A stretch of DNA of 64,000 nt from Candidatus Magasanikiibacteriota bacterium (GTDB lineage: Bacteria; Patescibacteriota; Patescibacteriia; Magasanikbacterales; UBA922), in NCBI GenBank assembly GCA_016207245.1, contig JACQQA010000009.1, positions 9,165 to 73,164 on the forward strand. The letters are read 5' to 3'. Positions 5,456 to 62,242 of the stretch are shown here, piece by piece. The stretch's first letter is position 1. Each line of letters begins with the position of its first letter. The translations under genes were made by a program, and so were the position numbers. The notes beneath the pieces were generated by a model. The model was not told where the DNA came from and searched no databases. It was given only the letters and a program-made list of their open reading frames with translations.

Positions 5456-6718
5456 TTAGGTGAACCAAACTAAAATCATAACACCGAGAATAAGCATAAC
5501 CGCGGCTGACAAAATCTTCATATTCCGGCTTTCATTCTGCTCCCACGCCGTTATTTTCTCCACCGCGTATTTATTCGCTGACAAAAGCAAAATAATCACG
5601 AGCGGCATGACAAACATTAAATTATACAAGAACAAATAACCGACGCCGGAAAAATAGGTGGTCTTAACAGCGAGCAAGCCGATTATTGCCACGTAAATTC
5701 CGCCGGAACACGGAAAAGTGCAGAGCCCAACGAGAAATCCGGCCACAAACGCGGCCGGCATGGTCGCCTTGGTAATCCACTGGCGCAAAGTTTCCTTGCT
5801 AAACATGGGAATGCGAAATTTTATCGGAAATTTGGGGAAAACCAGACCGACAATATTTATCACGCCCAAAACAATCACCAGCCAAGCTCCGAGCTTGGCC
5901 ATCAGGTGCGGCGAATTGGTAAAGACCAACGCTTTCATCAGACCAAAACCGATTAGAACATAAGCCAAAAAAATCGCCGCGATATAAATTACGCCCATTT
6001 TCCCGATGTTAGCTCTGGTTCTTTTGAGAGAAAAAAGAAAAGCAATAAACAAGAGCAGAACGGCAAAAGCGCAAGGATTGATGCCGTCCAAAAAACCGGA
6101 AACTAATACCACCGGCAGAAGCGATTTATATTTTTCCGCCTGTCCGCCCACCCTATCATCCAGGCTAAACTGACTTTTATTATCATTTAAATATTTGAAA
6201 TACTCGCTGACCGGCGTGTTAATCGGATAAATTTTGATTTCGCCGACAAAATTATCGGCGTAAGCGGGAATGGCAAAAATTTTATATTCCTTCGCGTCAG
6301 TGTGCATTTCATCCTGCGATACCACCACTAGTTTGAATTGGTGACTGATTTCTTCGCTGAACAAATCTTCAACTATTTTGTTTGGCACATGCCCGCCTAA
6401 AATAAACTTATTGCCCACAAAAGCCATAATATGGCTCTGCAAATCAATCGGAATTTTATATCGCGTTAAAAGTTGATTCATTTCCGCTCTCACTCCCTGC
6501 TGACTGATATAGTCCTTTTTAATAATTTCACCCACGCCGTGCTCATTCAAAAGCGCCGGCAAATCAGTATTCACGTGAACAGCGCAGGCGCCGCAGGCTT
6601 CGTTATAATAAATAACGGCCTTGGCTCCGGCCACATCGCCGTGCGCGAATGCCAAATGCAATGGCGACAAAATCGCGGTGATAATAACAGTAAAAATAAA
6701 AAACTTCTTTAATTTCAT
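5456..6718 (-). CDS. CcdA/DsbD-like membrane domain fused to an N-terminal extracytoplasmic CxxC domain
   Basis: Signal peptide, CGACAVH motif, then GINPCAFAVLLLF and CTFPCSGG motifs in TM helices. Confidence 0.7.
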   Translation of the reverse strand: MKLKKFFIFTVIITAILSPLHLAFAHGDVAGAKAVIYYNEACGACAVHVNTDLPALLNEHGVGEIIKKDYISQQGVRAEMNQLLTRYKIPIDLQSHIMAFVGNKFILGGHVPNKIVEDLFSEEISHQFKLVVVSQDEMHTDAKEYKIFAIPAYADNFVGEIKIYPINTPVSEYFKYLNDNKSQFSLDDRVGGQAEKYKSLLPVVLVSGFLDGINPCAFAVLLLFIAFLFSLKRTRANIGKMGVIYIAAIFLAYVLIGFGLMKALVFTNSPHLMAKLGAWLVIVLGVINIVGLVFPKFPIKFRIPMFSKETLRQWITKATMPAAFVAGFLVGLCTFPCSGGIYVAIIGLLAVKTTYFSGVGYLFLYNLMFVMPLVIILLLSANKYAVEKITAWEQNESRNMKILSAAVMLILGVMILVWFT

Positions 6719-10080: not shown

Positions 10081-10136
10081 ATAAAATAGAGGTTATTCGT
10101 TTGTTAGTTGTTAATTGTTCATTGTTAATTTACCAA

Positions 10137-14805: not shown

Positions 14806-17238
14806 TTATCTATCCTCAGCCCTGTCTTCCTCTGCTCCCTCAACCTCTTCTTCAATGGCTCCAACGTCTTCCTCATCTTCTTCACTATTTTCATCGTCTT
14901 CATCACTATCTCCGTTATCTCCACTATCTCCATTTTCCTCGCCGCTCTCTCCATCATCAAACACATTAAACTCGCCGCCGGAATCAGTGCCGGAAACTTC
15001 TACCTCGGTCGTTAAAATTTCGCGCGGTTTCGCGCCATCAGCCGGGCCGATAATTCCCGCCGCCTCCATCTCATCCAAAATTCGCGCCGCGCGGGCGTAG
15101 CCGACTTTCAAACGGCGCTGTAATAATGACGCGCTGGCTTTGCCGGCTTGTAAAACCGCTGTTTTCGCTTCATCAAACATCGCGTCATGGTCATCGCTCG
15201 GCCCGCCGAACATATTCGCGGTTCCGCCGACAGCTTTCCCCACGATTGCTTCATCATATTCCGGCTCTTCATCGCCTTTCAAATAATTACCCACATTATT
15301 AACTTCCCCTTCGGAAATATAGGCGCCCTGAATCCGTTTTGGTTTGCTTAATTCCGCGGTTAAAAACAGCATATCGCCGCGGCCAAGCAGTTTTTCCGCG
15401 CCGGGACAGTCAAGAATCGTGCGCGAATCAATCAGCGACGCCACGGAAAACGCGATGCGAGCCGGAATGTTCGCCTTCATCAAGCCGGTGATAATATCAA
15501 CGCTCGGCCTCTGTGTGGCGACGATTAAATGAATGCCGACCGCGCGCGCCATCTGCGCCAGACGGATAATGCCGGCTTCAACTTCGCTCGCCGCGGATGC
15601 CATTAAATCCGCCAGTTCGTCAATGATAAACACAATGTGGGGTAATTTGGTTTCCGGATGTTTTTCATTATATGAATGAATATCGCGCGAACCGGCTTGC
15701 GCTAAAATTTCAAACCGCCGATCCATTTCGCCGGTTGTCCACTTCAGCGCGTTCACGGTTTTCTGCACATTGGTAATCACCGGCGCCAACAAGTGCGGGA
15801 TGCCATTATATAAAGTAAGCTCAACTCGTTTCGGGTCAACCATAATAAACCGCAAAGTTTCCGCGGTGTTCTGATACAACAAACTCATGATAATTGTGTT
15901 GATGCACACGGTTTTTCCCGAACCGGTCGCGCCGGCAACCAATAAATGCGGCATTTTCGGCAAATCCGCGAACCACACTTTGCCCGCGACATCTTTCCCC
16001 AACGCGATCATCAGATTGTGTTCGCGCTCGGCAAATTCCCGGCTTTCCAAAAGCTCTTTCAATGTTACCAGCGCGGCTTTGAAATTTGGCACTTCAATTC
16101 CGACCAAGGATTTCCCCGGAATCGGAGCTTCAATACGAATCGGATGCGCGGCCAAAGCCAAAGCCAAATCATTTGAAAGCGAGGTAATGCGGGAGAGTTT
16201 GACACCCTTCGCCGGTTTCAAAGAATATTGGGTAACCGCCGGACCAACTCTGATTTCCCCCATTTCCACTTCGATGCCAAACTCAGACAACATGCTCTGG
16301 ATCGCCTGTGCGTTCGCCTCAATGTCTCCGCTCGTCGGCTTGTCCCGTTTCGTGGTTAACAAAGAAAGCGGCGGCAAATTTTTTATAATCACTCTCTTTG
16401 TCCACGGCGAAGAATTTTTTTCTTTACCCTGAGCTTGCCGAAGGGCTTCCTCCTCTTCTGTTTCCGCGCCTTCTTCCTCGCCGTTGTTGTTCCCAGCCAT
16501 GGCTTTTTTAACAAACGCCCGCTGTTTATTCACATCCACTTCATCATCTTCATCACCTTCCCCGCCATAGACGGGTCCGCCTTGGGCGGAAACATTATCA
16601 TCATCTTCGCTTTCATATCCTTCAAACTCGCCGTTAACTTTAACGCCACCACTCCCGGTCTTAACGAATAATTTAAACAAATTAATTACTGTCTGTCCGG
16701 CCAAGCCCAAGCCCGCGAATAATTTTTTATTCAACAAAACAAAATGGGCAAGCGCAGTGTTGAAAATTAAAAATACGGATACGGCCGCCATTCCGACCAG
16801 AACCACCACGCTCGCGATTGAACCCAAATATGTTTTCATCGGCCAAGCCAGCATTCCGAACACGCCGCCACCGCTTCCTTCTAGCGCCATACTCCACATT
16901 TCCGTTGGATTAAAACCGATATGGAACAAGCTGGAGAGCGAAAGAAAAAATAAAATCGCGCCAATGCCATGCGTCTTGCGATAGTTGTATTCAATGTCTT
17001 TAAAATAAAACCAGGCGAGGATTAAAATAATCGCCGGCGCCGCATAACGCATTGAACCAAACAAAAAACTCAAAATATACTCGTCCAGCATAATGCCGAC
17101 CGCGCCCGCTTTTCCCAAAAAACTCAAAACAAAAAGAATGGCGGCAATCACCAAAACAATGCCGATAATCCCGCGGGATAATTCCGGGTCAAAGCGTTGG
17201 GAATGGTGATGGTATGGGCGGGGCATAAAAAACAACAA
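14806..17238 (-). CDS. ftsK: DNA translocase FtsK/SpoIIIE
   Basis: N-terminal TM helices, acidic linker, AGATGSGKT Walker A, and C-terminal gamma winged helix. Confidence 0.97.
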   Translation of the reverse strand: MLFFMPRPYHHHSQRFDPELSRGIIGIVLVIAAILFVLSFLGKAGAVGIMLDEYILSFLFGSMRYAAPAIILILAWFYFKDIEYNYRKTHGIGAILFFLSLSSLFHIGFNPTEMWSMALEGSGGGVFGMLAWPMKTYLGSIASVVVLVGMAAVSVFLIFNTALAHFVLLNKKLFAGLGLAGQTVINLFKLFVKTGSGGVKVNGEFEGYESEDDDNVSAQGGPVYGGEGDEDDEVDVNKQRAFVKKAMAGNNNGEEEGAETEEEEALRQAQGKEKNSSPWTKRVIIKNLPPLSLLTTKRDKPTSGDIEANAQAIQSMLSEFGIEVEMGEIRVGPAVTQYSLKPAKGVKLSRITSLSNDLALALAAHPIRIEAPIPGKSLVGIEVPNFKAALVTLKELLESREFAEREHNLMIALGKDVAGKVWFADLPKMPHLLVAGATGSGKTVCINTIIMSLLYQNTAETLRFIMVDPKRVELTLYNGIPHLLAPVITNVQKTVNALKWTTGEMDRRFEILAQAGSRDIHSYNEKHPETKLPHIVFIIDELADLMASAASEVEAGIIRLAQMARAVGIHLIVATQRPSVDIITGLMKANIPARIAFSVASLIDSRTILDCPGAEKLLGRGDMLFLTAELSKPKRIQGAYISEGEVNNVGNYLKGDEEPEYDEAIVGKAVGGTANMFGGPSDDHDAMFDEAKTAVLQAGKASASLLQRRLKVGYARAARILDEMEAAGIIGPADGAKPREILTTEVEVSGTDSGGEFNVFDDGESGEENGDSGDNGDSDEDDENSEEDEEDVGAIEEEVEGAEEDRAEDR

Positions 17239-17308
17239 TTTAGCAATTTAATAATTTAACAATTCAACACCCCAATATTTTATCACAATTCCATAAAAAG
17301 CCAAAGTC

Positions 17309-34102: not shown

Positions 34103-34588
34103 TTATAATGCTTGCCCAATCTTTTTCTTTTTTGTCCTTGTCAGTTCTCCAAAAACAATCGTTGTCGCTCCCACCACAATCATCACATCCGCCAAATTTA
34201 TCACCCCAGTCAAAATCCGCAAGTAATCAATCGTGGCGCTGAAGAGAACTCTGTCTATAAAATTAGATAACGCACCAGAGATAATTAAACAATTAGCAAT
34301 TAACAAATAACAATCGGCCGCTTTGTCAGCAAATAATTTAATTAACCAAACAACCAGTCCAAAAATAATCAACGGCGTGATTAAAACCAACAGCCAATTC
34401 GGAAACGGTAAAGAAAACGCGATGCCGGGATTGGCCATATACTCCCATCCCAGCCACTTGCCAATAATATGATACTCAAAATCCTGATTGCTCCGCGCGA
34501 AAAATTTTAATAACTGGTCCACCAACAAAAAAATTCCGCCCATGCCCACTAATACGCAGACCCTCGGACGGAATTCTTTAATAAACAT
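34103..34588 (-). CDS. lspA: Lipoprotein signal peptidase II
   Basis: NPGIAFS, ALSNFIDR and INLADVMIVVG motifs. Confidence 0.9.
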   Translation of the reverse strand: MFIKEFRPRVCVLVGMGGIFLLVDQLLKFFARSNQDFEYHIIGKWLGWEYMANPGIAFSLPFPNWLLVLITPLIIFGLVVWLIKLFADKAADCYLLIANCLIISGALSNFIDRVLFSATIDYLRILTGVINLADVMIVVGATTIVFGELTRTKKKKIGQAL

Positions 34589-35882: not shown

Positions 35883-36959
35883 CTATGTCGCGACATGAAA
35901 ATAGACCACATCTCCATCTCTCACCACATAATCTTTCCCTTCCAACCTCAACTTGCCAGAAGTTTTGATCCCGCTCCAGCCGCCAAACAGGATGAAGTCC
36001 TGCCAGCTACAAACATCGGCTTTGATAAAGCCCTTGATAAAATCGGTATGAATCACTCCTGCCGCTTGGGGGGCGGATGCCCCCCGTTTTACTGTCCAGG
36101 CGCGAGTTTCCGGCTCGCCGGAAGTAAGAAAAGTAATTAAATCTAAAAGCTTATAACTGGCCAAAATTAGCTTATCTAAGCCGGTTTGCTCAATCCCCAA
36201 CTCTTTCAAATACTGCTTCGCCTCTTCCGGCGACAACTCCGCCACCTCGGCTTCCAGCTTCGCGCAAACATGTGTTTGGTCCGTTCGTTCGCCAAGATTT
36301 AGGATTTCTGATTTAGGATTTAGAGTTTCGTCATCATTTATGACGTAAAGCACTGGTTTCATCGTCAACAAATGCAAGTCTTTCACAACCACCACTTCAT
36401 CCTCTGTAAATTCAAGCGCCCGCGCGGGTTTTTCGCTTTCTAAACACAATTTAATTTTTTCCAAAACTTCAATCTCTATTTTAATTTTATCATCAATTTT
36501 GCCTTTGGCGCCTTTTTTTGTTGTGTTTAATTTTTTTTCAACCGTCTGTAAGTCCGCTAAAATAAGCTCTAAATTTATTATCTCCGCGTCTTCTTTCGGA
36601 TCAACGCGGTTTTGCACGTGAACCACATTGCTGTCGGAAAACGCGCGCACGACCTGAACAATCGCGTCAACTTCTCTGATGTGAGATAAAAACTTATTGC
36701 CTAAACCGGCGCCTTCAGAGGCGCCCTTAACCAGGCCGGCAATATCAACAAACTGAATCGCGGTCGGAATTGTTTTTTTTGATTTTGAAACTTCGGCAAG
36801 CTGTGCCAAACGCTCATCTGGGACCTCTACAATGCCCACGTTGGGCTCAATCGTGCAAAAAGGATAATTCTGCGCGTCCGCTTGTTTACTGCGCGTCAGA
36901 GCGTTAAAAAGCGTTGATTTGCCGACGTTAGGAAGACCGACTATTCCGATGGAAAGCAT
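35883..36959 (-). CDS. ychF: Redox-regulated ATPase YchF
   Basis: True start MLSIGIVGLPNVGKSTLFNALT. The longer ORF-track N-terminus reads through the tRNA-Ala gene. Confidence 0.93.
   Translation of the reverse strand: MLSIGIVGLPNVGKSTLFNALTRSKQADAQNYPFCTIEPNVGIVEVPDERLAQLAEVSKSKKTIPTAIQFVDIAGLVKGASEGAGLGNKFLSHIREVDAIVQVVRAFSDSNVVHVQNRVDPKEDAEIINLELILADLQTVEKKLNTTKKGAKGKIDDKIKIEIEVLEKIKLCLESEKPARALEFTEDEVVVVKDLHLLTMKPVLYVINDDETLNPKSEILNLGERTDQTHVCAKLEAEVAELSPEEAKQYLKELGIEQTGLDKLILASYKLLDLITFLTSGEPETRAWTVKRGASAPQAAGVIHTDFIKGFIKADVCSWQDFILFGGWSGIKTSGKLRLEGKDYVVRDGDVVYFHVAT
36296..36323. repeat. Four tandem heptamers (minus strand AAATCCT-type) inside ychF, in frame
   Basis: Plus strand GATTTAG GATTTCT GATTTAG GATTTAG. 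Encodes LNPKSEILNL in YchF. Confidence 0.7.
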
Positions 36960-37572: not shown

Positions 37573-37777
37573 CAAAGCCGTGGCGGGCAGGTATCCGTTG
37601 CCATGCACCGCGTGGGGCGCATGGTCCGCCTCTGGCGGAAACTACGAGGGCTTATTTCGCGATATGACAATCTTCTGACCACCAAAAATAATGGACAAAA
37701 GATTGTTGGGGCGGTGTGAATGATAGTCGCCCCAAAGAAAAAGAACGGGTGGGCCATGGTTTCAACGCGCCGGCGTT

Positions 37778-37981
37778 TTACTCCACTGCTAGAGGTGGGG
37801 CGACAAAGGATGTTGTGGAAGCCGAAGGCGGGGATTGTGAGCCGTTGTCAGGAGTCTCCCCACAACAGCGCGGACAACAATGCCCTTCGCAGGTGTGTTC
37901 GTTGCCATGGTCTGGCTTTCCTGCGCAACAGCCCGATTGACCACGACAGGACGGTGGAGAAAGTGTATTGGAAAGATTCAC
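37778..37981 (-). CDS. GC-rich island 4: 67-aa Cys-rich peptide (8 Cys, 3 His)
   Basis: AAAGGAGG SD 5 nt before GTG at 37981. (M)NLSNTLSPPSCRGQSGCCAGKPDHGNEHTCEGHCCPRCCGETPDNGSQSPP...; consensus promoter upstream. Confidence 0.5.
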   Translation of the reverse strand: MNLSNTLSPPSCRGQSGCCAGKPDHGNEHTCEGHCCPRCCGETPDNGSQSPPSASTTSFVAPPLAVE

Positions 37982-38051
37982 TCTTACCTCCTTTTGGATT
38001 TTCCGCCTTGAACATTCAGGGCGGTACCGCATTTGCATACGGATGGCCGGT

Positions 38052-38080
38052 AGTTTACTGACAAAAATAAATTTTGTCAA
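38052..38080 (-). promoter_or_regulatory. Promoter TTGACA-N17-TAAACT for the Cys-rich peptide gene (and possibly downstream tRNAs)
   Basis: Counted by hand. Confidence 0.55.
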
Positions 38081-38095
38081 ATTAGTTGTTAACTC

Positions 38096-38124
38096 TTGAC
38101 AAGATACTTAACATATGTTAATAT
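38096..38124 (+). promoter_or_regulatory. Promoter TTGACA-N17-TAATAT for the HTH-Doc operon
   Basis: Counted by hand. Confidence 0.6.
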
Positions 38125-38148
38125 ACTAAGTGTACTTAACAGAGCACT

Positions 38149-38406
38149 ATGGCGGACAAAAATCAAATTTCTACAGCCGAGCTGGCCAAAATGCTCAGAA
38201 TCAGCCGGGTGGCGATTTTTTATAAAATCAAACGCGGAGAAATACCGGCGATTAAGGTTGGACGAAATTATGTTATCAACACTTTTGATTTGCCGTATTT
38301 ATTTGGTCATGAATTAAATGCGGATAATAAGCGCGAGGTTGTCGGCGCGGTAAGACGAACAGTCAAACAATACCGCAAAACCCTGGAATTGCTGGGACGA
38401 GAATAA
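38149..38406 (+). CDS. Excisionase/MerR-type HTH protein (likely antitoxin of Doc)
   Basis: LAKMLRISRVAIFYKIKRGEIPAIKVGRNYVI (HTH_17-like). 5 nt upstream of the Doc gene. Confidence 0.7.
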   Translation: MADKNQISTAELAKMLRISRVAIFYKIKRGEIPAIKVGRNYVINTFDLPYLFGHELNADNKREVVGAVRRTVKQYRKTLELLGRE

Positions 38407-48506: not shown

Positions 48507-48556
48507 GCGAATGTGGATATTCTAACATTTTTTTCAAATTAGTCAACCGGCAGCCG

Positions 48557-48660
48557 CAGAAATCAGAAGACAGATAACAGGATACATTTTTGTGAACGAT
48601 TTTTATCACTGTCGTCAATTCGCTGCATTTTGTTATCTGTATTCTGAATTCTGACATCTG
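48557..48660. repeat. P1 palindromic element, alpha core
   Basis: Arms cagaaatcagaagacagataacaggataca / tgcattttgttatctgtattctgaattctg. The core is near-identical to the copy at 39947-39983. Confidence 0.8.
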
Positions 48661-48662
48661 TC

Positions 48663-48691
48663 TTGACTTTTTTTTCGCCAACAAATATAAT
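48663..48691 (+). promoter_or_regulatory. Promoter TTGACT-N17-TATAAT for island 6
   Basis: Counted by hand. Confidence 0.6.
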
Positions 48692-49325: not shown

Positions 49326-49580
49326 ACTGCTGCGTATCCTCGGGGGCGGTCGCCTCCGCTGTTCTTTCACACACCACGGGAGGGCTGAACAGACATGCTC
49401 TGACTTCGCCCTCCCAAACTCCCATAAAATCAAACCCGCCCCAAGCTTGCCGAAGGGCGTTTTTTATTTCGCCGACTTCCAACCATTCGTTGTTAATTGT
49501 TAGTTGCTCATTGCTAATTGTATTGTTAAGATGTAAAATTGTTTTAGTTAACAAGCAGGCTGTATGGTAATAATTCGTGT

Positions 49581-49636: not shown

Positions 49637-50038
49637 ATGAAATTTGTTCCTTACTCAAACCAGAAAGAATACAAAAGTTTGCGAGTCGCTCTGAGAAAAA
49701 CACAGACGGATGCTGAAGAATTATTATGGGCATACTTGAGGAACAAGAGAGCAGGCTTTAAATTTCGCAGACAGCACGGGATTGGTAATTATATTGTTGA
49801 TTTTTATTGCCACCGCTCAAAAGTAATAATTGAGATAGACGGTTTTGTGCATGAAGATGACGGTGTGTTTGAAAAAGACAAAATTAGACAAGGTGAGCTT
49901 GAAAGATTGGGTTTTAAAGTTTTACGTTACACCAATAAGCAAGTTTATAAAAATTTAAGAGGTGTCTGGTATCACATAATTGAAGAGTGTAAACAGAGAT
50001 GTGGGCCATTAACCCCCTCCCGAACCTCCCCCTCATAG
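49637..50038 (+). CDS. DUF559 (Vsr-like endonuclease fold) protein
   Basis: TDAEELLWAYLRNKRAGFKFRRQHGIGNYIVDFYC...IEIDG...LRYTN is typical of DUF559. Confidence 0.8.
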   Translation: MKFVPYSNQKEYKSLRVALRKTQTDAEELLWAYLRNKRAGFKFRRQHGIGNYIVDFYCHRSKVIIEIDGFVHEDDGVFEKDKIRQGELERLGFKVLRYTNKQVYKNLRGVWYHIIEECKQRCGPLTPSRTSPS

Positions 50039-50061: not shown

Positions 50062-50748
50062 ATGAATCAAAAAAAATTTGTCATTATTGACGGCAACGCC
50101 ATCATCCATCGCGCTTACCACGCCTTGCCGCCGATGACGGTCAAGGGCACGATGGTGAACGCGGTGTATGGCTTCACATCAATGCTGTTGAAAGTGATTA
50201 AAGATTTAAAACCGGATTATTTGGCCGTTAGTTTTGATGTGGCGGGCGGAACTTTTCGCGATAAAGTTTTTGACGGTTATAAAGCCAAGCGCGTGAAAGC
50301 GGACCAAGAATTATATGATCAAATTCCGCTCGTGCATAAAGTTGTTGAGGCATTTGGTTTGCCGATTTTGAAAAAAGAAGGTTTTGAAGCTGACGACGTC
50401 ATTGCCACTGTTGTGGCTAAAATTAAAAATGAAAAAATCAAAATGAAAAATGTTGTAGTGAGTGGCGATATGGACTTACTACAACTCGTTGACGATGACA
50501 CGAGCGTTTACGCGTTAAGAAAGGGCATGAGCGATATTGTGATGTATGACGCGGAAGAAGTCCAAAAGAAATATGGTTTTGGGCCGGAGCATATTGTTGA
50601 TTACAAGTCTTTGCGCGGGGATCCGTCGGATAATATTCCGGGCGTGCCGGGGATTGGGGAGAAGACGGCGACGGAGTTGATACAGAAAGTTGGAGGGATT
50701 TATGAGATTTACAAACAAATCCGAAATCCGAAATCAAAAATCTACTGA
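50062..50748 (+). CDS. polA: DNA polymerase I, 5'-3' exonuclease (FEN) portion; the frame ends inside a heptamer repeat
   Basis: MNQKKFVIIDGNAIIHRAYHALPP...GIGEKTATELI. Stop at 50746 directly after the AAATCCG repeats. Confidence 0.9.
   Translation: MNQKKFVIIDGNAIIHRAYHALPPMTVKGTMVNAVYGFTSMLLKVIKDLKPDYLAVSFDVAGGTFRDKVFDGYKAKRVKADQELYDQIPLVHKVVEAFGLPILKKEGFEADDVIATVVAKIKNEKIKMKNVVVSGDMDLLQLVDDDTSVYALRKGMSDIVMYDAEEVQKKYGFGPEHIVDYKSLRGDPSDNIPGVPGIGEKTATELIQKVGGIYEIYKQIRNPKSKIY
50717..50744. repeat. Heptamer tandem repeat AAATCCG AAATCCG AAATCAA AAATCTA at the polA frame break
   Basis: Read directly. Removing the first two units (14 nt) fuses both polA frames. Confidence 0.85.
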
Positions 50749-50795
50749 GCGAAAATATTATAAGAAAACTTACTGACGGGGAGGAGAGCGCGAGG

Positions 50796-52745
50796 ATGAG
50801 CCAGAAGCTGGCAACGGTAGTGAACGATGTGCCGGGATTGAATTTTAAATTGGAAGACTGCGCGATGAAAGATTTTGACCGGCAGAGCGTGGTGGAGTTG
50901 TTGAGGAAGTTTGATTTTTTTTCGCTGATTAAACGCCTCCCCGGAGGCGACGATTCACTTCATCACACCACCACACCACCACACCATCACCGGAAACACG
51001 TGGATTTTGAGTTGGTTGAAACTGATGAGAATAATGTTAAAGAATTTGAAAAGGCATTATCAACAACAAACGTTTTTGCTTGTAAGGAAATTTTGAGCGG
51101 AACGGATATTTTGAACAGCGATTTGCTGGGTCTGGTTTTCGTCGTTGGAGATAAATCGTTTTACTTTAAAAATCCGCAACAATTTGTGGGGTCTGTGTTT
51201 CACCAAAAAGACAAGACATTGGTTGGTCATAATTTGAAACAATTAGTCAAGATACTTACACACTTACACACTTACACACTTACACACTTATTCGACACCA
51301 TGATCGCTTCCTATCTCCTCAACTCCAGCACTCGCGCCCATGACGCGAAAAGCGTGATTTTGCGCGAATTGGGGCAAGAGATCCATGGTAGCTCAGATCA
51401 AAGCAGCTTGTTCGGCGCTAATCCAAGACAGGTTGCCGAAGAATTAAAATTGATTTTGCAAGCGCATGAAACACAAAAGAAAAAATTGGCGGATTTGGAA
51501 GACTTCGGTTTGTTTGAAAAAGTTGAGATGAAATTGATACCGGTTTTAGCCGAGATGGAATTAAACGGTGTGGCAATTGATTCTGGTGTGCTAAAAAAAT
51601 TATCCAAAGATGTTGGCGAAGAAATAAATAAAATTGACAAACAAATTCAAAAAGAGGCGGGCGAGGAATTTAATGTCGCTTCGCCCACGCAGCTGCGCGA
51701 TATTTTATTTGATAAATTAAAATTGCCGAGCGAGGGAGTTAAAAAGGGCAAGACCGGATATTCCACGGCCGACGCGGAATTGGAAAAGTTGATTGACGCG
51801 CATCCGATTATCAGTCTGATTCGCGACTATCGCGAGCTGGCGAAGTTGCAAAACACTTATGTGGATGTTTTGCCAACGCTGGTAAATAAAAAAACCGGAC
51901 GCATCCACACAACTTTTAATCAGGCGGTAACAACAACCGGCCGGCTTTCCAGTTCGGAGCCGAATCTGCAAAATATTCCAATCAGAACAGACTTGGGCAA
52001 AGAAATTCGCAACGCGTTTATCGCCGAGGCCGGAAATAATTTAATCGCCGCGGATTATTCTCAAATTGAACTGCGCATTGTCGCTTCGCTGGCCAAAGAC
52101 CAGACAATGATTGACGTATTTAAGCGTGGTGAGGATATTCATCAAGCCACGGCCGCGGTTATAAATGATGTGCCGTTGGAAAAAGTAACGAAAGAAATGC
52201 GCTACGCGGCCAAAGCGGTAAATTTCGGCGTGCTATATGGCATGGGTTCTTATGGATTGGCGTGGCGGACAAAAATGCCGCAATGGCAGGCGAAAGATTT
52301 TATAAAAAAATATTTTGAAAAATTTTCCAGCGTGAAAAAATATATTGATCAGACTTTGGAATTCGCCAAAAAAGAGGGCTATGTGGAAACTTTGTTTGGC
52401 CGTCGGCGTTATATTCCGGAATTAAAATCCGACAATTTTCAACTGCGTTCGGCCGGCGAGCGGATGGCGATCAATATGCCGATTCAAGGCACAGCCGCGG
52501 ATTTGATGAAAATGGCGATGATTGCCGTTCATGACCAAATCCGAAATCCTAAATCCGAAATCCTAAATCACGACGATACAAAAATGATTTTGCAGGTGCA
52601 TGATGAGTTGGTATTAGAAGTTAAAAAGGGTTTGGAAAAAGAAGTGTCAAAATTAGTGAAAGACGCGATGGAGAATGTGGTGAAATTAAACGTGCCGGTG
52701 GAGGCGCATGTAAGTGTTGGGAAAAGGTGGGGAGAGTTGAAATAG
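50796..52745 (+). CDS. polA: DNA polymerase I, 3'-5' exo-like and polymerase domains (frame open from 50706, first ATG at 50796)
   Basis: TGRLSSSEPNLQNIP, DYSQIELR and QVHDELVLEV motifs. The pre-ATG in-frame codons encode LLSENIIRKLTDGEESAR, which is homologous to the Pol I linker. Confidence 0.93.
   Translation: MSQKLATVVNDVPGLNFKLEDCAMKDFDRQSVVELLRKFDFFSLIKRLPGGDDSLHHTTTPPHHHRKHVDFELVETDENNVKEFEKALSTTNVFACKEILSGTDILNSDLLGLVFVVGDKSFYFKNPQQFVGSVFHQKDKTLVGHNLKQLVKILTHLHTYTLTHLFDTMIASYLLNSSTRAHDAKSVILRELGQEIHGSSDQSSLFGANPRQVAEELKLILQAHETQKKKLADLEDFGLFEKVEMKLIPVLAEMELNGVAIDSGVLKKLSKDVGEEINKIDKQIQKEAGEEFNVASPTQLRDILFDKLKLPSEGVKKGKTGYSTADAELEKLIDAHPIISLIRDYRELAKLQNTYVDVLPTLVNKKTGRIHTTFNQAVTTTGRLSSSEPNLQNIPIRTDLGKEIRNAFIAEAGNNLIAADYSQIELRIVASLAKDQTMIDVFKRGEDIHQATAAVINDVPLEKVTKEMRYAAKAVNFGVLYGMGSYGLAWRTKMPQWQAKDFIKKYFEKFSSVKKYIDQTLEFAKKEGYVETLFGRRRYIPELKSDNFQLRSAGERMAINMPIQGTAADLMKMAMIAVHDQIRNPKSEILNHDDTKMILQVHDELVLEVKKGLEKEVSKLVKDAMENVVKLNVPVEAHVSVGKRWGELK
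51254..51290. repeat. 8-nt tandem repeat ACTTACAC x4.6 inside polA
   Basis: Encodes LTHLHTYTLTHL. Confidence 0.75.
52537..52571. repeat. Five heptamers AAATCCG/AAATCCT inside the polA polymerase domain, in frame
   Basis: Encodes QIRNPKSEILNH in the loop before QVHDELV. Confidence 0.8.
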
Positions 52746-52746
52746 T

Positions 52747-53775
52747 ATGCTTATTTTTCTCTATGGCACGGATACGTTCCGTAGCCGGCAACAATTAAAA
52801 AAAATGATTGCCAAATTCAGGCAAGACCGCGATCCTGGCGGATACAACGTGGCGGTTTTGGATTGTCAAAAAGAAGAAGGCGGGAAAATAATGGAACAGA
52901 TTTTGTCCGCGCCATTTTTGGCAGAAAAAAGAATGGTGGTTTTGGAAAATTTTTTGTCTGCCACAGGCCGCGGTGATTTACAAGAAGAGATTTTAAAAAG
53001 AATAACAAACAAGACATTGCCGGAATCAACAGTGCTTGTTTTTTATGAAAGCCCTTCGGCTCCTTCGACAAGCTCAGGACGAGTCGCTCAGGGCAAGCCC
53101 AAAACAAAAGTTGCTAAAGAATTGTTTGATATATTAAGTAAAGAAAAATTTAGCCAGCAATTTGATTTATTGATCGGGGTGAAGTTAATCAGCTGGATTT
53201 TACAAGAAGTAAAAGATCATGGCGGCAAGATTAATCAGCCGGCGGCACAATATCTGGCGCAAAATGTTGGTGGAGACATGTGGAGGTTGAGTTCATTGGT
53301 GAAACAGTTGATTGCCTTCAAACAATCGTCTTGTCATCCCCGTGAAAACGGGGATCCAGAAATCGCGCTGTCCGATGTCCAACTCTTTCTTGACGAAAAA
53401 GCAGATGACAGCATTTTCAACCTCGTTGATGCGGTTGTCGGCGGGCAAGCGAAAAAAGCCTTTGAAATGATTCGCGAACAATACAGAATCGGCGAGGACG
53501 CGCAGTTTGTTTTTGCCATGCTATTGAGGCAATTCAGAATTTTGCTGGAATTGCGGGATTTGTACGACCGTGAGGATAATTTATCGAGCGAACAGTTGGC
53601 GAAAAAATTAAACCTGCATCCATTTGTGGTAAAAAAATCTTTGGTATTCGTCAAAAAATATTCTTTGGCTAAATTAAAAACAGTTTATCAGCGGTTGTTG
53701 GATTTAGATGTAAAAACAAAGACCGGCCAAGGAGACCAGTCGTTATTGTTGGATGTTTTTGTGGGAACCGTTTAG
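52747..53775 (+). CDS. holA: DNA polymerase III delta subunit
   Basis: MLIFLYGTDTFRSRQQLKKMI... with a HolA-like layout. Carries two GC-hairpin insertions (53053-53099, 53336-53355). Confidence 0.75.
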   Translation: MLIFLYGTDTFRSRQQLKKMIAKFRQDRDPGGYNVAVLDCQKEEGGKIMEQILSAPFLAEKRMVVLENFLSATGRGDLQEEILKRITNKTLPESTVLVFYESPSAPSTSSGRVAQGKPKTKVAKELFDILSKEKFSQQFDLLIGVKLISWILQEVKDHGGKINQPAAQYLAQNVGGDMWRLSSLVKQLIAFKQSSCHPRENGDPEIALSDVQLFLDEKADDSIFNLVDAVVGGQAKKAFEMIREQYRIGEDAQFVFAMLLRQFRILLELRDLYDREDNLSSEQLAKKLNLHPFVVKKSLVFVKKYSLAKLKTVYQRLLDLDVKTKTGQGDQSLLLDVFVGTV

Positions 53776-57972: not shown

Positions 57973-58057
57973 CATGCGAAATGCGAAAGATTGCGAAAAT
58001 GCGAACAACCGCTACAATTCGCTTTTCGCAATTTCGCAATCTTTCGCATTTCGCATG
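57973..58057. repeat. P2 palindromic element built from ATGCGAA heptamers
   Basis: catgcgaaatgcgaaagattgcgaaaatgcgaa ... ttcgcttttcgcaatttcgcaatctttcgcatttcgcatg. The outer 26 nt are perfectly complementary. Confidence 0.8.
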
Positions 58058-58687: not shown

Positions 58688-58691
58688 CGAA

Positions 58692-58832
58692 CAGAATGCA
58701 GCCACCAGATAACAGAATGCAACGAACGGGTGATTGGCGAGTAGAACAGACACCAATCGTAAATGTATTCTGTTATCTGTATTCTGGTAACTGTTCGTTG
58801 TAATTGCATTCTGTTATTTGTATTCTGCATTC
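58692..58832. repeat. P1 palindromic element, beta core, with a duplicated right arm
   Basis: cagaatgcagccaccagataacagaatgca ... ggtgattggcgagtagaac ... tgtattctgttatctgtattctg ... tgcattctgttatttgtattctgcattct. Confidence 0.8.
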
Positions 58833-58840
58833 TAAAAAAT

Positions 58841-60247: not shown

Positions 60248-60248
60248 A

Positions 60249-60407
60249 CAGAATACAGAGTGCAGATAACAGAATGCACACGACAAAAACAGCTACCAGA
60301 TAACAGAATGCAACGAGTTGGCATTGGTGAGTAAAATCGGTCGCGGATGTATTCTGCTATCTGTATTTTGGTAATTGCTCGTTTTGTTATCTGCATTCTG
60401 CATTCTG
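60249..60407. repeat. P1 palindromic element, beta core, nested double arms
   Basis: Outer arms at 60249-60278 and 60383-60407, inner arms at 60296-60311 and 60349-60375. Core is ggcattggtgagtaaaatc. Confidence 0.8.
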
Positions 60408-60450
60408 AAAAGCTGGTCAACCCACCCAAGTTTTGTTATAATAACGGCGT

Positions 60451-61391: not shown

Positions 61392-62111
61392 ATGAAACAC
61401 AAGAACATTTTACTTTCATTACCATTCATATTTTCAGCATTTGGTTTTTTGTTTTTTAAGGCGGATTTCGCGTTTGGGGCGGACGGTATGTGCACCTGCG
61501 ACATTGTCCATACGGACACCGGGGAAAAAGAAACAGACGACGTGAGCGATAAGTCGCAAGCAGTGTGCTATGCGCTGGAGGGGACAGCGCCTTTTGAGAA
61601 TCAGCTTTATAAAAACTGCCTTTGGCAGGATACCGGCGGAACCTGCCAATGCAAAGTTAAAAACACACTGAACCAAGAAATAACTTTTGAAAAGATTGAC
61701 GGTATTGGGACAGAAGAGAAATGCAAGAATTTAGTAACGGAGACATCTGGTGGAGAAACAGATGTTTTAGTAAATGAAAGCTGTGAGTGGGTGGGGGGGG
61801 CGGCGCCACAACCAATTACTACCGAAGGATCCGAATCAGCTATTGATCTGCCTTCGGTCGCGGGTTTAAACAAACTAAAAAATACCGACGTAAAAGCCGT
61901 GTTTGGCAATATTATTTCTGTCGCCATGGGATTGCTGGGAAGTATCGCTTTGGCATTGTTCGCCTACGCCGGCGTGCTCTGGATGCTGGCCGGCGGCAAC
62001 GCCGAAAGGTCAACGCAAGCAAAAAATATTGTGGTCTGGGCGACGCTGGGTCTGTTTGTTATTTTCGCGAGTTATACTATAGTGAGTTTTATATTTAGCG
62101 CGGTAGAGTGA
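61392..62111 (+). CDS. Secreted Cys-rich protein with a C-terminal two-TM T4SS-pilin-like (TrbC/VirB2-style) segment
   Basis: Signal peptide MKHKNILLSLPFIFSAFG. The C-terminus GLLGSIALALFAYAGVLWMLAGGNAERSTQAKNIVVWATLGLFVIFASY resembles the T4SS_pilin family. Confidence 0.6.
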   Translation: MKHKNILLSLPFIFSAFGFLFFKADFAFGADGMCTCDIVHTDTGEKETDDVSDKSQAVCYALEGTAPFENQLYKNCLWQDTGGTCQCKVKNTLNQEITFEKIDGIGTEEKCKNLVTETSGGETDVLVNESCEWVGGAAPQPITTEGSESAIDLPSVAGLNKLKNTDVKAVFGNIISVAMGLLGSIALALFAYAGVLWMLAGGNAERSTQAKNIVVWATLGLFVIFASYTIVSFIFSAVE

Positions 62112-62112
62112 T

Positions 62113-62236
62113 AATACAGAACACATAACACAATTAACAAAACACACACGATTCAAAACACATAACCCAATAAACATAACACAACAAACCCAATCGCCAA
62201 TCCACTGTGTTCTGTTATCTGCATTCTGTATTCTGC
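62113..62236. repeat. P1 element, degenerate left arm and intact right arm
   Basis: Right arm tgtgttctgttatctgcattctgtattctg, core caatcgccaatcc (beta type). The left side has decayed to a CA-rich tract. Confidence 0.6.
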
Positions 62237-62242
62237 AAAACT

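Follow-up and report, generated by a model that had tools for sequence, protein, structure and literature searches.

Comparison of related sequences suggests a lineage-wide habit in which 7- or 8-base repeats overwrite, time and again, a few loose protein loops of conserved enzymes. We describe it in a 64,000-nt stretch of a Candidatus Magasanikiibacteriota genome (GenBank assembly GCA_016207245.1, contig JACQQA010000009.1, positions 9,165 to 73,164 of the forward strand; hereafter the window, with positions counted from its first letter), in which short tandem arrays of the heptamer AAATCCK lie inside ychF and at two places in polA, the gene for DNA polymerase I (Pol I). We interpret the arrays as heptameric (plus octameric) simple-sequence repeats (SSRs), an AT-rich Magasanikbacteria version of the heptamer SSRs of bacteria, and give this reading a probability of about 0.65. 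Within coding sequence, they are restricted to a few loops free of structural constraint, of which YchF has one and Pol I has five. The three AAATCCK arrays and their host genes are as follows.

35883..36959, minus strand: ychF, 358 aa, start MLSIGIVGLPNVGKST, with a match to TIGR00092
36294..36328, minus strand: heptamer array in ychF, (AAACTCT) AAATCCT AAATCAG AAATCCT AAATCTT; peptide T-LNPKSEILNL-G
50062..50748, plus strand: 5' part of polA with the 5'-3' exonuclease domain, Pol I profile positions 1-220
50706..52745, plus strand: 3' part of polA in the -1 frame, Pol I profile positions 235-889; first ATG at 50796
50717..50744, plus strand: heptamer array at polA site 1, AAATCCG AAATCCG AAATCAA AAATCTA
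52537..52571, plus strand: heptamer array at polA site 2, (AAATCCG AAATCCT) x2.4, perfect at period 14

The match of ychF to the TIGR00092 profile scored 456 bits. Its product is 100% identical to a protein from a Candidatus Magasanikbacteria metagenome-assembled genome (MAG; P0001), and the close homologs all come from the same lineage of the candidate phyla radiation (CPR). The ychF array is imperfect; Tandem Repeats Finder (TRF) placed it at 36296-36323 with period 7, 4.0 copies and 80% matches, and the coding strand reads GAA ACT CTA AAT CCT AAA TCA GAA ATC CTA AAT CTT GGC, with the translation ETLNPKSEILNLGE. At polA site 2 the array (52537-52571) is translated as QIRNPKSEILNH, the stretch 52537-52569 giving DQIRNPKSEILNHDD, and at polA site 1 (50717-50744) the translation is QIRNPKSKIY, followed by a TGA stop. 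The units stand head-to-tail at all three sites, with 2.7 period-7 copies by TRF at polA 50717 and 4.7 at polA 52537. A 14-mer of the unit, with at most one mismatch allowed, matched the window seven times compared with 0.29 expected, and a 21-mer with at most three mismatches gave seven overlapping matches compared with 0.04 expected, which were confined to the three sites. Chance does not account for these three (AAATCCK)n arrays, and the initial annotation, which reported the heptamer repeat once in ychF and twice in polA, described them correctly. It had also stated that they always encode NPKSEIL-like peptides. The readings are as stated, but they are a consequence of arithmetic and not a separate finding: three 7-nt units traverse all three frames, so that an in-frame array in this orientation is a circular permutation of K-S-E-I-R/L-N-P. 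In such readings, strand orientation alone is informative. Comparison of the flanks of the three arrays revealed nothing in common beyond the arrays themselves.

Short-period arrays are enriched in the window as a class. TRF was run on the 64-kb window and on 40 third-order Markov simulations. The window contained 20 period-7 arrays compared with 1.8 expected (~11-fold), and 8 compared with 0.07 at scores of at least 36; for period 8 there were 14 arrays compared with 2.9 expected (~5-fold), and 6 compared with 0.3 at the same score. Periods 5, 10 and 11 were not enriched in the window by this comparison. The data for the period excess are the 64-kb window and 1.26 Mb of related loci, not a whole genome. 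Heptamer arrays had a median of 4.4 units (75 arrays) and octamer arrays a median of 4.0, giving spans of 31-32 nt, with the lower bound of array size set by the TRF score threshold. Overall, the units are 76% A+T. The other coding arrays of the window are the following.

50419..50452, plus strand: decayed heptamer array at polA site 0, AAAATGA x4.9, 74% matches; translation KIKNEKIKMKNV
50964..50990, plus strand: octamer array at a polA linker hot spot ~900 nt into the gene, CACACCAC x3.4; translation HTTTPPHHH
51254..51290, plus strand: perfect octamer array ~1200 nt into polA, in the vestigial 3'-5' exonuclease domain, ACTTACAC x4.6; translation ILTHLHTYTLTHL
34283..34314, minus strand: heptamer array in lspA, TTGTTAA on the coding strand, x4.4; in frame, translation DCYLLIANCLI

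The TTGTTAA family comprises this lspA array and intergenic arrays at 10101-10130 and 49490-49529, so that one unit serves coding and non-coding places in the same genome. An octamer related to TTGTTAA, AACAATTT, lies at 17234-17269.

We fetched 80 polA loci from GTDB genomes, of which 65 could be read end to end. Arrays were found at ~350, 650, 900, 1200 and 2470 nt into the gene, and the arrays of the window lie at exactly these five positions. The units vary by species, including (AAGTCCG)x4.3, (AACTCAG)x4.4, (GAAAGATT)x4 and (AAGTTAC)x4.1, with (TGTCAGT)x4.4, (ACTTTCAA)x4.2, (AAGTGCTC)x5.2 and (AAACAAG)x4.1 in further species. All array sites are hypervariable in orthologs, and the arrays range from perfect to decayed. 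Site 2 corresponds to the loop that joins helix Q to the strand carrying motif C (QVHDE), in which Taq polymerase is 8 residues shorter, and the arrays of the ~1200 site stand in for a conserved xGIEVxNKLFD hairpin in the vestigial 3'-5' exonuclease domain. With 88% identity, L005 is the closest relative; its ~1200 site carries the same octamer as the window, its site 0 another heptamer and its site 1 an array of 9-mer units. From species to species, single substitutions distinguish the site 1 units (AAATCCG, AAGTCCG, AAGTCAA and AAATCAA) and are shared by all copies within an array, and this pattern is what concerted evolution within an array produces.

Pol I loops with and without an array were then compared in length. 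The values were 30.5 and 30 aa, respectively, at site 1, 41 and 40 aa at the ~1200 site, 24 and 21 aa at site 0, 39 and 35 aa at the ~900 site and 29 and 27 aa at site 2; array-bearing loops are just 0-4 aa longer, although arrays span ~10 aa. This result indicates that arrays overwrite loops and do not lengthen them, and the term "insert" used in the initial annotation has to be given up. Its view of the repeat as a DNA-level, short-period element tolerated as a peptide in loops and linkers is borne out by the hypervariable sites, the site 2 loop and the low-confidence coil of YchF described below.

It is hardly credible that the arrays reflect ordinary loop sequence, low complexity arising by chance or a fault of assembly. 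In favor of this view, the genome is rich in A+T and in Lys, some loops, for example KSKIK (AAATCAAAAATCAAA), come close to periodicity by nature, and the polA frameshift at 50717 comes from one MAG assembly; yet the matches lie far above the shuffled expectation, and perfect 7/8-nt arrays stand at the same loops in dozens of MAGs from differing studies and assemblers. Arrays of 20-35 nt are also shorter than a sequencing read, which would make copy-number collapse during assembly unlikely. Chance and artefact are excluded for the arrays but not for the single frameshift, which could be an error or a minority allele.

The YchF array occupies the loop directly after the G4 NxxE motif (NDDE). 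In the AlphaFold model, the array segment is a coil between strands 203-208 and 228-231, with pLDDT below 50 at residues 213-221 and 223-225, and in an alignment with E. coli YchF the array stands where the E. coli protein has the segment NPYLDQVREIAAKEG. Across 45 aligned orthologs with a mean column identity of 72%, 16 consecutive columns after the NxxE motif have no majority residue. The DNA of this loop reads (CAGAATT)x3 in P0022, (CAGAATG)x3 in P0006 and (AAATCCA AAATCTG)x2 in P0035. We also designed a protein-level test, in which a 9-aa window must back-translate to a perfect 7- or 8-nt array with one mismatch allowed. The test was positive in 17 of 120 YchF orthologs compared with ~1 expected by chance; the positives lie nearly all in the loop after the NxxE motif and represent at least nine different units. 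An ordinary conserved peptide in this loop, kept in orthologs with different codons, was considered and rejected. Orthologs differ there, and where NPKSEI recurs, in the 75% identical P0035, it is encoded by two copies of AAATCCA AAATCTG and is still heptamer-periodic in the DNA.

A second array hot spot in YchF lies near residue 171, in the coiled-coil domain (P0002, P0004, P0007, P0008 and P0067), where an octamer array (AGTTTGCA)n would encode the peptide SLQVGKFAS found there.

According to the SSR reading, misaligned replication (slippage or short-patch template switching between adjacent units) or repair misalignment would copy a unit over its neighbor, and such copying would also run over adjacent unique sequence. 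Unit-over-neighbor copying would homogenize the arrays and spread them through a loop without net length change, as in concerted evolution, and point mutation would erode them. Selection would retain frame-preserving outcomes that are stop-free in all three frames and give a hydrophilic, loop-compatible peptide, which would lead to the sense orientation K-S-E-I-R/L-N-P. Since 7 and 8 are not multiples of 3, the gain or loss of a single unit is a frameshift, and the 50717 array, with three units where four are needed, would be in such a frameshifted state, splitting polA into a 5'-nuclease open reading frame (ORF) and a Klenow-like ORF.

Several points weigh against this reading. Stepwise slippage in an essential catalytic domain needs frameshifted intermediates, and polA site 2 adjoins motif C; the length-neutral, one-step overwriting that the reading invokes is inferred from the loop lengths. 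Slippage alone leaves unexplained both the preference for 7 and 8 over 5, 10 and 11 and the ~31-nt ceiling. The one published hypothesis ties the preference for seven to how much DNA the active site of the polymerase accommodates (Mrazek 2007, as cited in PMC4692102). The excess in polA, with 24 arrays compared with 2 coding-like arrays in ~988 kb of flanks, exceeds what is predicted if any loose loop would serve. Finally, the use of one unit at three loci of the window fits copying between loci better than it fits independent origins, as does a pair of octamer arrays in the polA ortholog L011. These lie 1.8 kb apart at sites 1 and 2 (nt 656-687 and 2498-2529), are identical at 29 of 32 positions, share the variant last unit ATAAGATT and are translated as RKIERLKDYKI and EKIKRLKDYKI; L011 alone among the relatives has this peptide at site 2, a pattern suggestive of copying from one site to the other. 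In a second genome, L004, the core of the array is AAGTC at ychF and at both site 1 and site 2 of polA, and at each of these loci the window has AAATC instead.

These observations bear on a serious rival, the transfer of cassettes, which corresponds to the "invading repeat" of the initial annotation and which we consider possible although unlikely. Here, ready-made arrays of ~30 nt would be copied between loci, coding or intergenic, by ectopic gene conversion or microhomology-mediated template switching, in one frame-preserving step that reuses the units of the genome itself. Such replacement would avoid lethal frameshift intermediates and would explain the unchanged loop length. The window reuses not only AAATCCK at three loci but also TTGTTAA at three (two intergenic, one in lspA), and the CAGAATT and CAGAATG units of YchF loops in other species are found as intergenic arrays in the window. 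The arrays of L011, with their odd last unit and a site 2 peptide of their own, and the concordant AAGTC and AAATC cores of L004 and the window point the same way, but the concordance at three loci between two genomes could also reflect the sorting of mixed ancestral arrays. Moreover, the window holds no intergenic AAATCCK donor, and no similarity extends past the array ends. In a permutation test, identical pairs more than 500 nt apart numbered 4 compared with 0.57 expected (p=0.0035) when the window was included and 1 compared with 0.26 (p=0.24) when it was left out. Within-genome unit sharing as a general rule was rejected, because the test is significant just when the window is included.

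A bolder version holds that the arrays are no passive microsatellites and that a dedicated, length-specific process writes ~4 units (~31 nt) over particular loops in one frame-preserving step, with other arrays of the same genome as the source and with Pol I (five sites) and YchF as the preferred targets. We consider this a long shot. If true, the preference for Pol I and YchF would be due either to the mechanism or to the usefulness of changeable or switchable loops; CPR bacteria would then possess a new kind of protein diversification, targeted and templated by repeats, and the four-unit preference of bacterial heptamer repeats would be mechanistic and not a G-quadruplex requirement.

The 65 polA genes hold 24 arrays, or 0.14 per kb, which is four times the density of the flanks. 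In the ~988 kb of flanks of the 65 loci we counted 35 arrays, of which 33 are intergenic or at gene edges and 2 are coding-like. Frameshift-prone or fast-changing loops of Pol I and YchF might be useful in themselves, either as contingency switches between fused and split Pol I or as an escape from inhibitors targeting Pol I or YchF. This density and the location of nearly all coding arrays within polA speak for such a role. So does the fact that unit lengths not divisible by three are a hallmark of phase-variable loci, as does the one array that has switched polA off or split it at the boundary between nuclease and polymerase, where, given the GGAGG noted below, both halves could be made. An adaptive role is nevertheless improbable. 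Only 1 of 66 polA genes is out of frame, the arrays have ~4 units, far below well-known phase-variable tracts, and the hosts (YchF, Pol I and LspA) are housekeeping proteins and not surface or host-interaction proteins. The peptides NPKSEIL, QNAECRM, QNSEFRI and HLHTYTL share just their tolerability, and the persistence of five old sites could alone explain the excess in polA.

The initial annotation had also shown the polA array at 50717 as ending in a stop. This stop after QIRNPKSKIY is a frameshift inside the array and not the natural end of polA. A single polA is spread over two frames: its first half is the ORF that ends at 50748, and its second half is the ORF whose first ATG is at 50796. 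Across 50706-50748 both frames stay open, and the second reads NPKSEIKNLLSENIIRKL and runs on into conserved Pol I sequence. The array is one unit short of being in frame; addition of 7 nt gives a stop-free Pol I that aligns with its orthologs over its full length, and a -1 slip on the CAAAAAT run (~50735-50741, read from sequence) would likewise fuse the halves. Each of the 65 orthologs that could be read end to end has polA as one ORF, so that with the window included 1 of 66 is out of frame. A second frameshifted polA (L079) was rejected as a scaffold gap of Ns. The interval between the stop and the ATG (50749-50795) still encodes conserved LSENIIRKLTDGEESAR, and because conserved residues are still encoded there the shift, if real, should be recent; judged from the sequence, the frameshift appears to be either recent or not real. 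It rests on one MAG assembly, with no independent assembly found, and neither half-ORF product is on record in the gene index, and it may be a real mutation, a minority allele or an error. The frame break has the property expected of a phase-variable locus, a unit length not divisible by three within an ORF. Read directly from the sequence, a GGAGG precedes the ATG at 50796 by 11 nt.

A gene with a DUF559 (Vsr-like endonuclease) domain (49637-50038) immediately precedes polA and overlaps its extended ORF, and a related contig (L003) has a DUF559 gene at 6314-6703, ~4.4 kb downstream of ychF.

Heptameric SSRs have been described in Xanthomonas (GGGAATC) and, as the cyanobacterial STRR heptamers, in Nostoc and Calothrix (GGGGA(T/C)T) (Rehm et al. 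2015, PMC4692102), with a mode of four units for the GGGAATC arrays of Xanthomonas. In both groups, the excess is at period 7 only, there are inverted convergent pairs, and the repeats vary between related species; the units are G-rich, are interpreted as G-quadruplex formers and are under-represented in ORFs (PMC4692102). As cited in the same paper, heptamers are over-represented in many bacteria (Mrazek et al. 2007), and three tandemly repeated heptanucleotides are known in Calothrix. The initial annotation knew of no described equivalent; this is not supported, as the heptameric SSRs of Xanthomonas, Nostoc and Calothrix had been described. Lin and Kussell (2012) do not mention heptamers. 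The arrays of the window resemble the Xanthomonas and Nostoc SSRs in their 7-nt units, period-7 excess, mode of ~4 and many dispersed loci with related units, and in the strong variation of length and sequence at one locus between related species; they resemble those of Xanthomonas also in the convergent inverted intergenic pairs at 58688-58840 and 60248-60420. They differ in that the units are 76% A+T and have no G tracts, so that the four-unit mode occurs without G-quadruplex potential, in that octamers behave alike and in that arrays lie in frame in conserved enzymes at fixed orthologous loci. The absence of G tracts holds for the AAATCCK, CAGAATN and TTGTTAA units, whereas the G-quadruplex criterion calls for at least four.

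The arrays can be compared with three further systems. Borg repeats in ORFs have unit lengths always divisible by three (Schoelmerich et al. 2023, PMC9879509). Like them, the arrays here are fast-evolving, genome-specific, A-rich perfect tandem repeats of independent origins, in ORFs and intergenic regions, that encode disordered peptide. Unlike them, they have units of 7 or 8 nt in core enzymes, the Borg units being longer and their hosts mostly extracellular or membrane proteins; three units here give a peptide period of 7 or 8 aa, and a change of a single unit is a frameshift.

The palindromic elements of Rickettsia (RPEs) and the small dispersed repeats (SDRs) of Nostoc are palindromic, 21-150 nt long, have conserved sequence and ends and lengthen their host. 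The RPEs were reportedly described by Ogata et al. in 2000, and the SDRs are said to have been described by Elhai et al. in 2008. As with these elements, housekeeping genes accommodate repetitive DNA in frame at surface loops, where it is read as extra or altered peptide. The arrays, in contrast, have no conserved ends, flanks or hairpin of their own, draw on many unrelated units and take the place of loop sequence instead of extending it. The contingency loci of host-adapted pathogens, for example the 7-bp repeats at hmw1A of Haemophilus influenzae, also have unit lengths not divisible by three, at which a change of copy number switches the frame or expression, and one such switch is visible in polA. 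Their tracts, however, are often of at least 10 units, in surface or virulence genes, and are population-polymorphic, whereas the arrays here have ~4 units in housekeeping genes, with 65 of 66 polA genes in frame.

Two polA orthologs, L012 (10484-10560) and L017 (9888-9960), have heptamer arrays interrupted by palindromic inserts of ~27 and 36 nt. The inserts keep the frame and have array units on either side; they recall the SDRs inserted in heptamer repeats of Nostoc and could hint at a link between small palindromic elements and arrays. Transposon footprints or target-site duplications as the origin of the 7/8-nt units were rejected, as two interrupted arrays in 1.3 Mb are too few.

Exact (AAATCCK)x3 followed by AAATC was found on at least 120 metagenome contigs with GC contents of 0.32-0.70 and a median of 0.57 among the matches listed; the AAATCCG unit is itself 43% GC. 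ORFs can be trusted on low-GC contigs, and there the genes with an in-frame array include GatA, SecA, PNPase, LeuRS, an ATP-dependent DNA ligase and a ROK kinase, and one contig carries a 5'-3' exonuclease with an in-frame array at polA site 0. A class-V aminotransferase has it in antisense orientation. Across 21 reliable host ORFs, 17 arrays are sense and 4 antisense, and this skew fits selection for hydrophilic KSEIRNP over FGFRISD. Four contigs among the matches listed have arrays of either orientation, and on three of these the two arrays form a close inverted pair. In 131 metagenome or viral AAATCCK arrays there was no information content in the 30 nt to the left, and on the right there was just the continuing partial unit CGAAA. 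A few matches are eukaryotic subtelomeric repeats (L099 and L158).

Exact arrays of 3.7 units were present on 12 viral contigs for AAATCCG and on 11, 5, 2 and 0 for four controls of the same composition; since control heptamers are comparably frequent, the AAATCCK unit is not special. (GCAATCC)x3.7, translated as QSAIRNP, occurs on 32 viral contigs (L235-L266), frequently with several arrays on one contig. The idea that AAATCCG is a special element of wide dissemination was rejected, given comparable controls, a commoner GCAATCC and no conserved flank. Prokaryotic and viral sequence in general contains heptamer arrays of about four units. The notion that one and the same heptamer invades coding sequence fails for these reasons: the flanks are not shared, orthologous loops hold many 7/8-nt units, and AAATCCG is no commoner than a control. 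The initial interpretation was thus partly right, in that coding loops tolerate repeats, and partly not, in that the repeat is not a single invading heptamer without known equivalent. Peptides encoded by such arrays produce spurious similarity between unrelated proteins.

We know of no accepted cause for the over-representation of heptamers in bacteria. The same signature, with periods of 7 or 8, about four units and inverted intergenic pairs, appears here in AT-rich units unable to form G-quadruplexes, and its presence in such units points to a mechanistic origin. What is new is that orthologous loops of core enzymes are overwritten by differing 7/8-nt arrays with unchanged length, although unit changes are frameshifts. 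This coding hot-spot behavior of heptamer and octamer SSRs looks undescribed; within the literature library searched, we found no paper on 7/8-nt arrays at orthologous loops of CPR core enzymes. Orthologs with different arrays at the same codons form a natural system for array birth, homogenization, replacement and movement between loci. The arrays are also predictable frameshift sites in CPR genomes, as the polA example illustrates, and annotators will call such genes pseudogenes or split genes.

Inverted heptamer-array pairs occupy intergenic regions of the window as well, as listed here.

58688-58840: inverted intergenic pair
60248-60420: inverted intergenic pair
48540-48670: inverted intergenic pair
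57974-58056: inverted intergenic pair
62110-62240: inverted intergenic pair

The CAGAATN/NATTCTG and ATGCGAA/TTCGCAT units face each other as inverted array pairs between genes on the same strand. Two of the inverted pairs were folded and gave long hairpins of -51.9 kcal/mol (z -6.3) and -67 kcal/mol (z -7.8), and such pairs could act as terminators or regulatory hairpins.

Beside a tRNA-Ala/tRNA-Arg cluster, ~700 nt at 37573-38300 hold no convincing ORF and by eye seem higher in G+C than their surroundings. The region had no Rfam match at E <= 0.01 and may represent a structured RNA not described so far or a gene in decay. In holA, a perfect small hairpin at 53332-53361, ATCCCCGT-GAAA-ACGGGGAT, is in frame and translated as CHPRENGDPE. 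Palindrome-coded peptides like that of holA occur in polA loops of orthologs (L056 at site 2, L017 at site 0 and L039 at the ~1200 site), and the holA hairpin looks as if it belonged to a family of its own, made up of small palindromic elements that coding loops tolerate.

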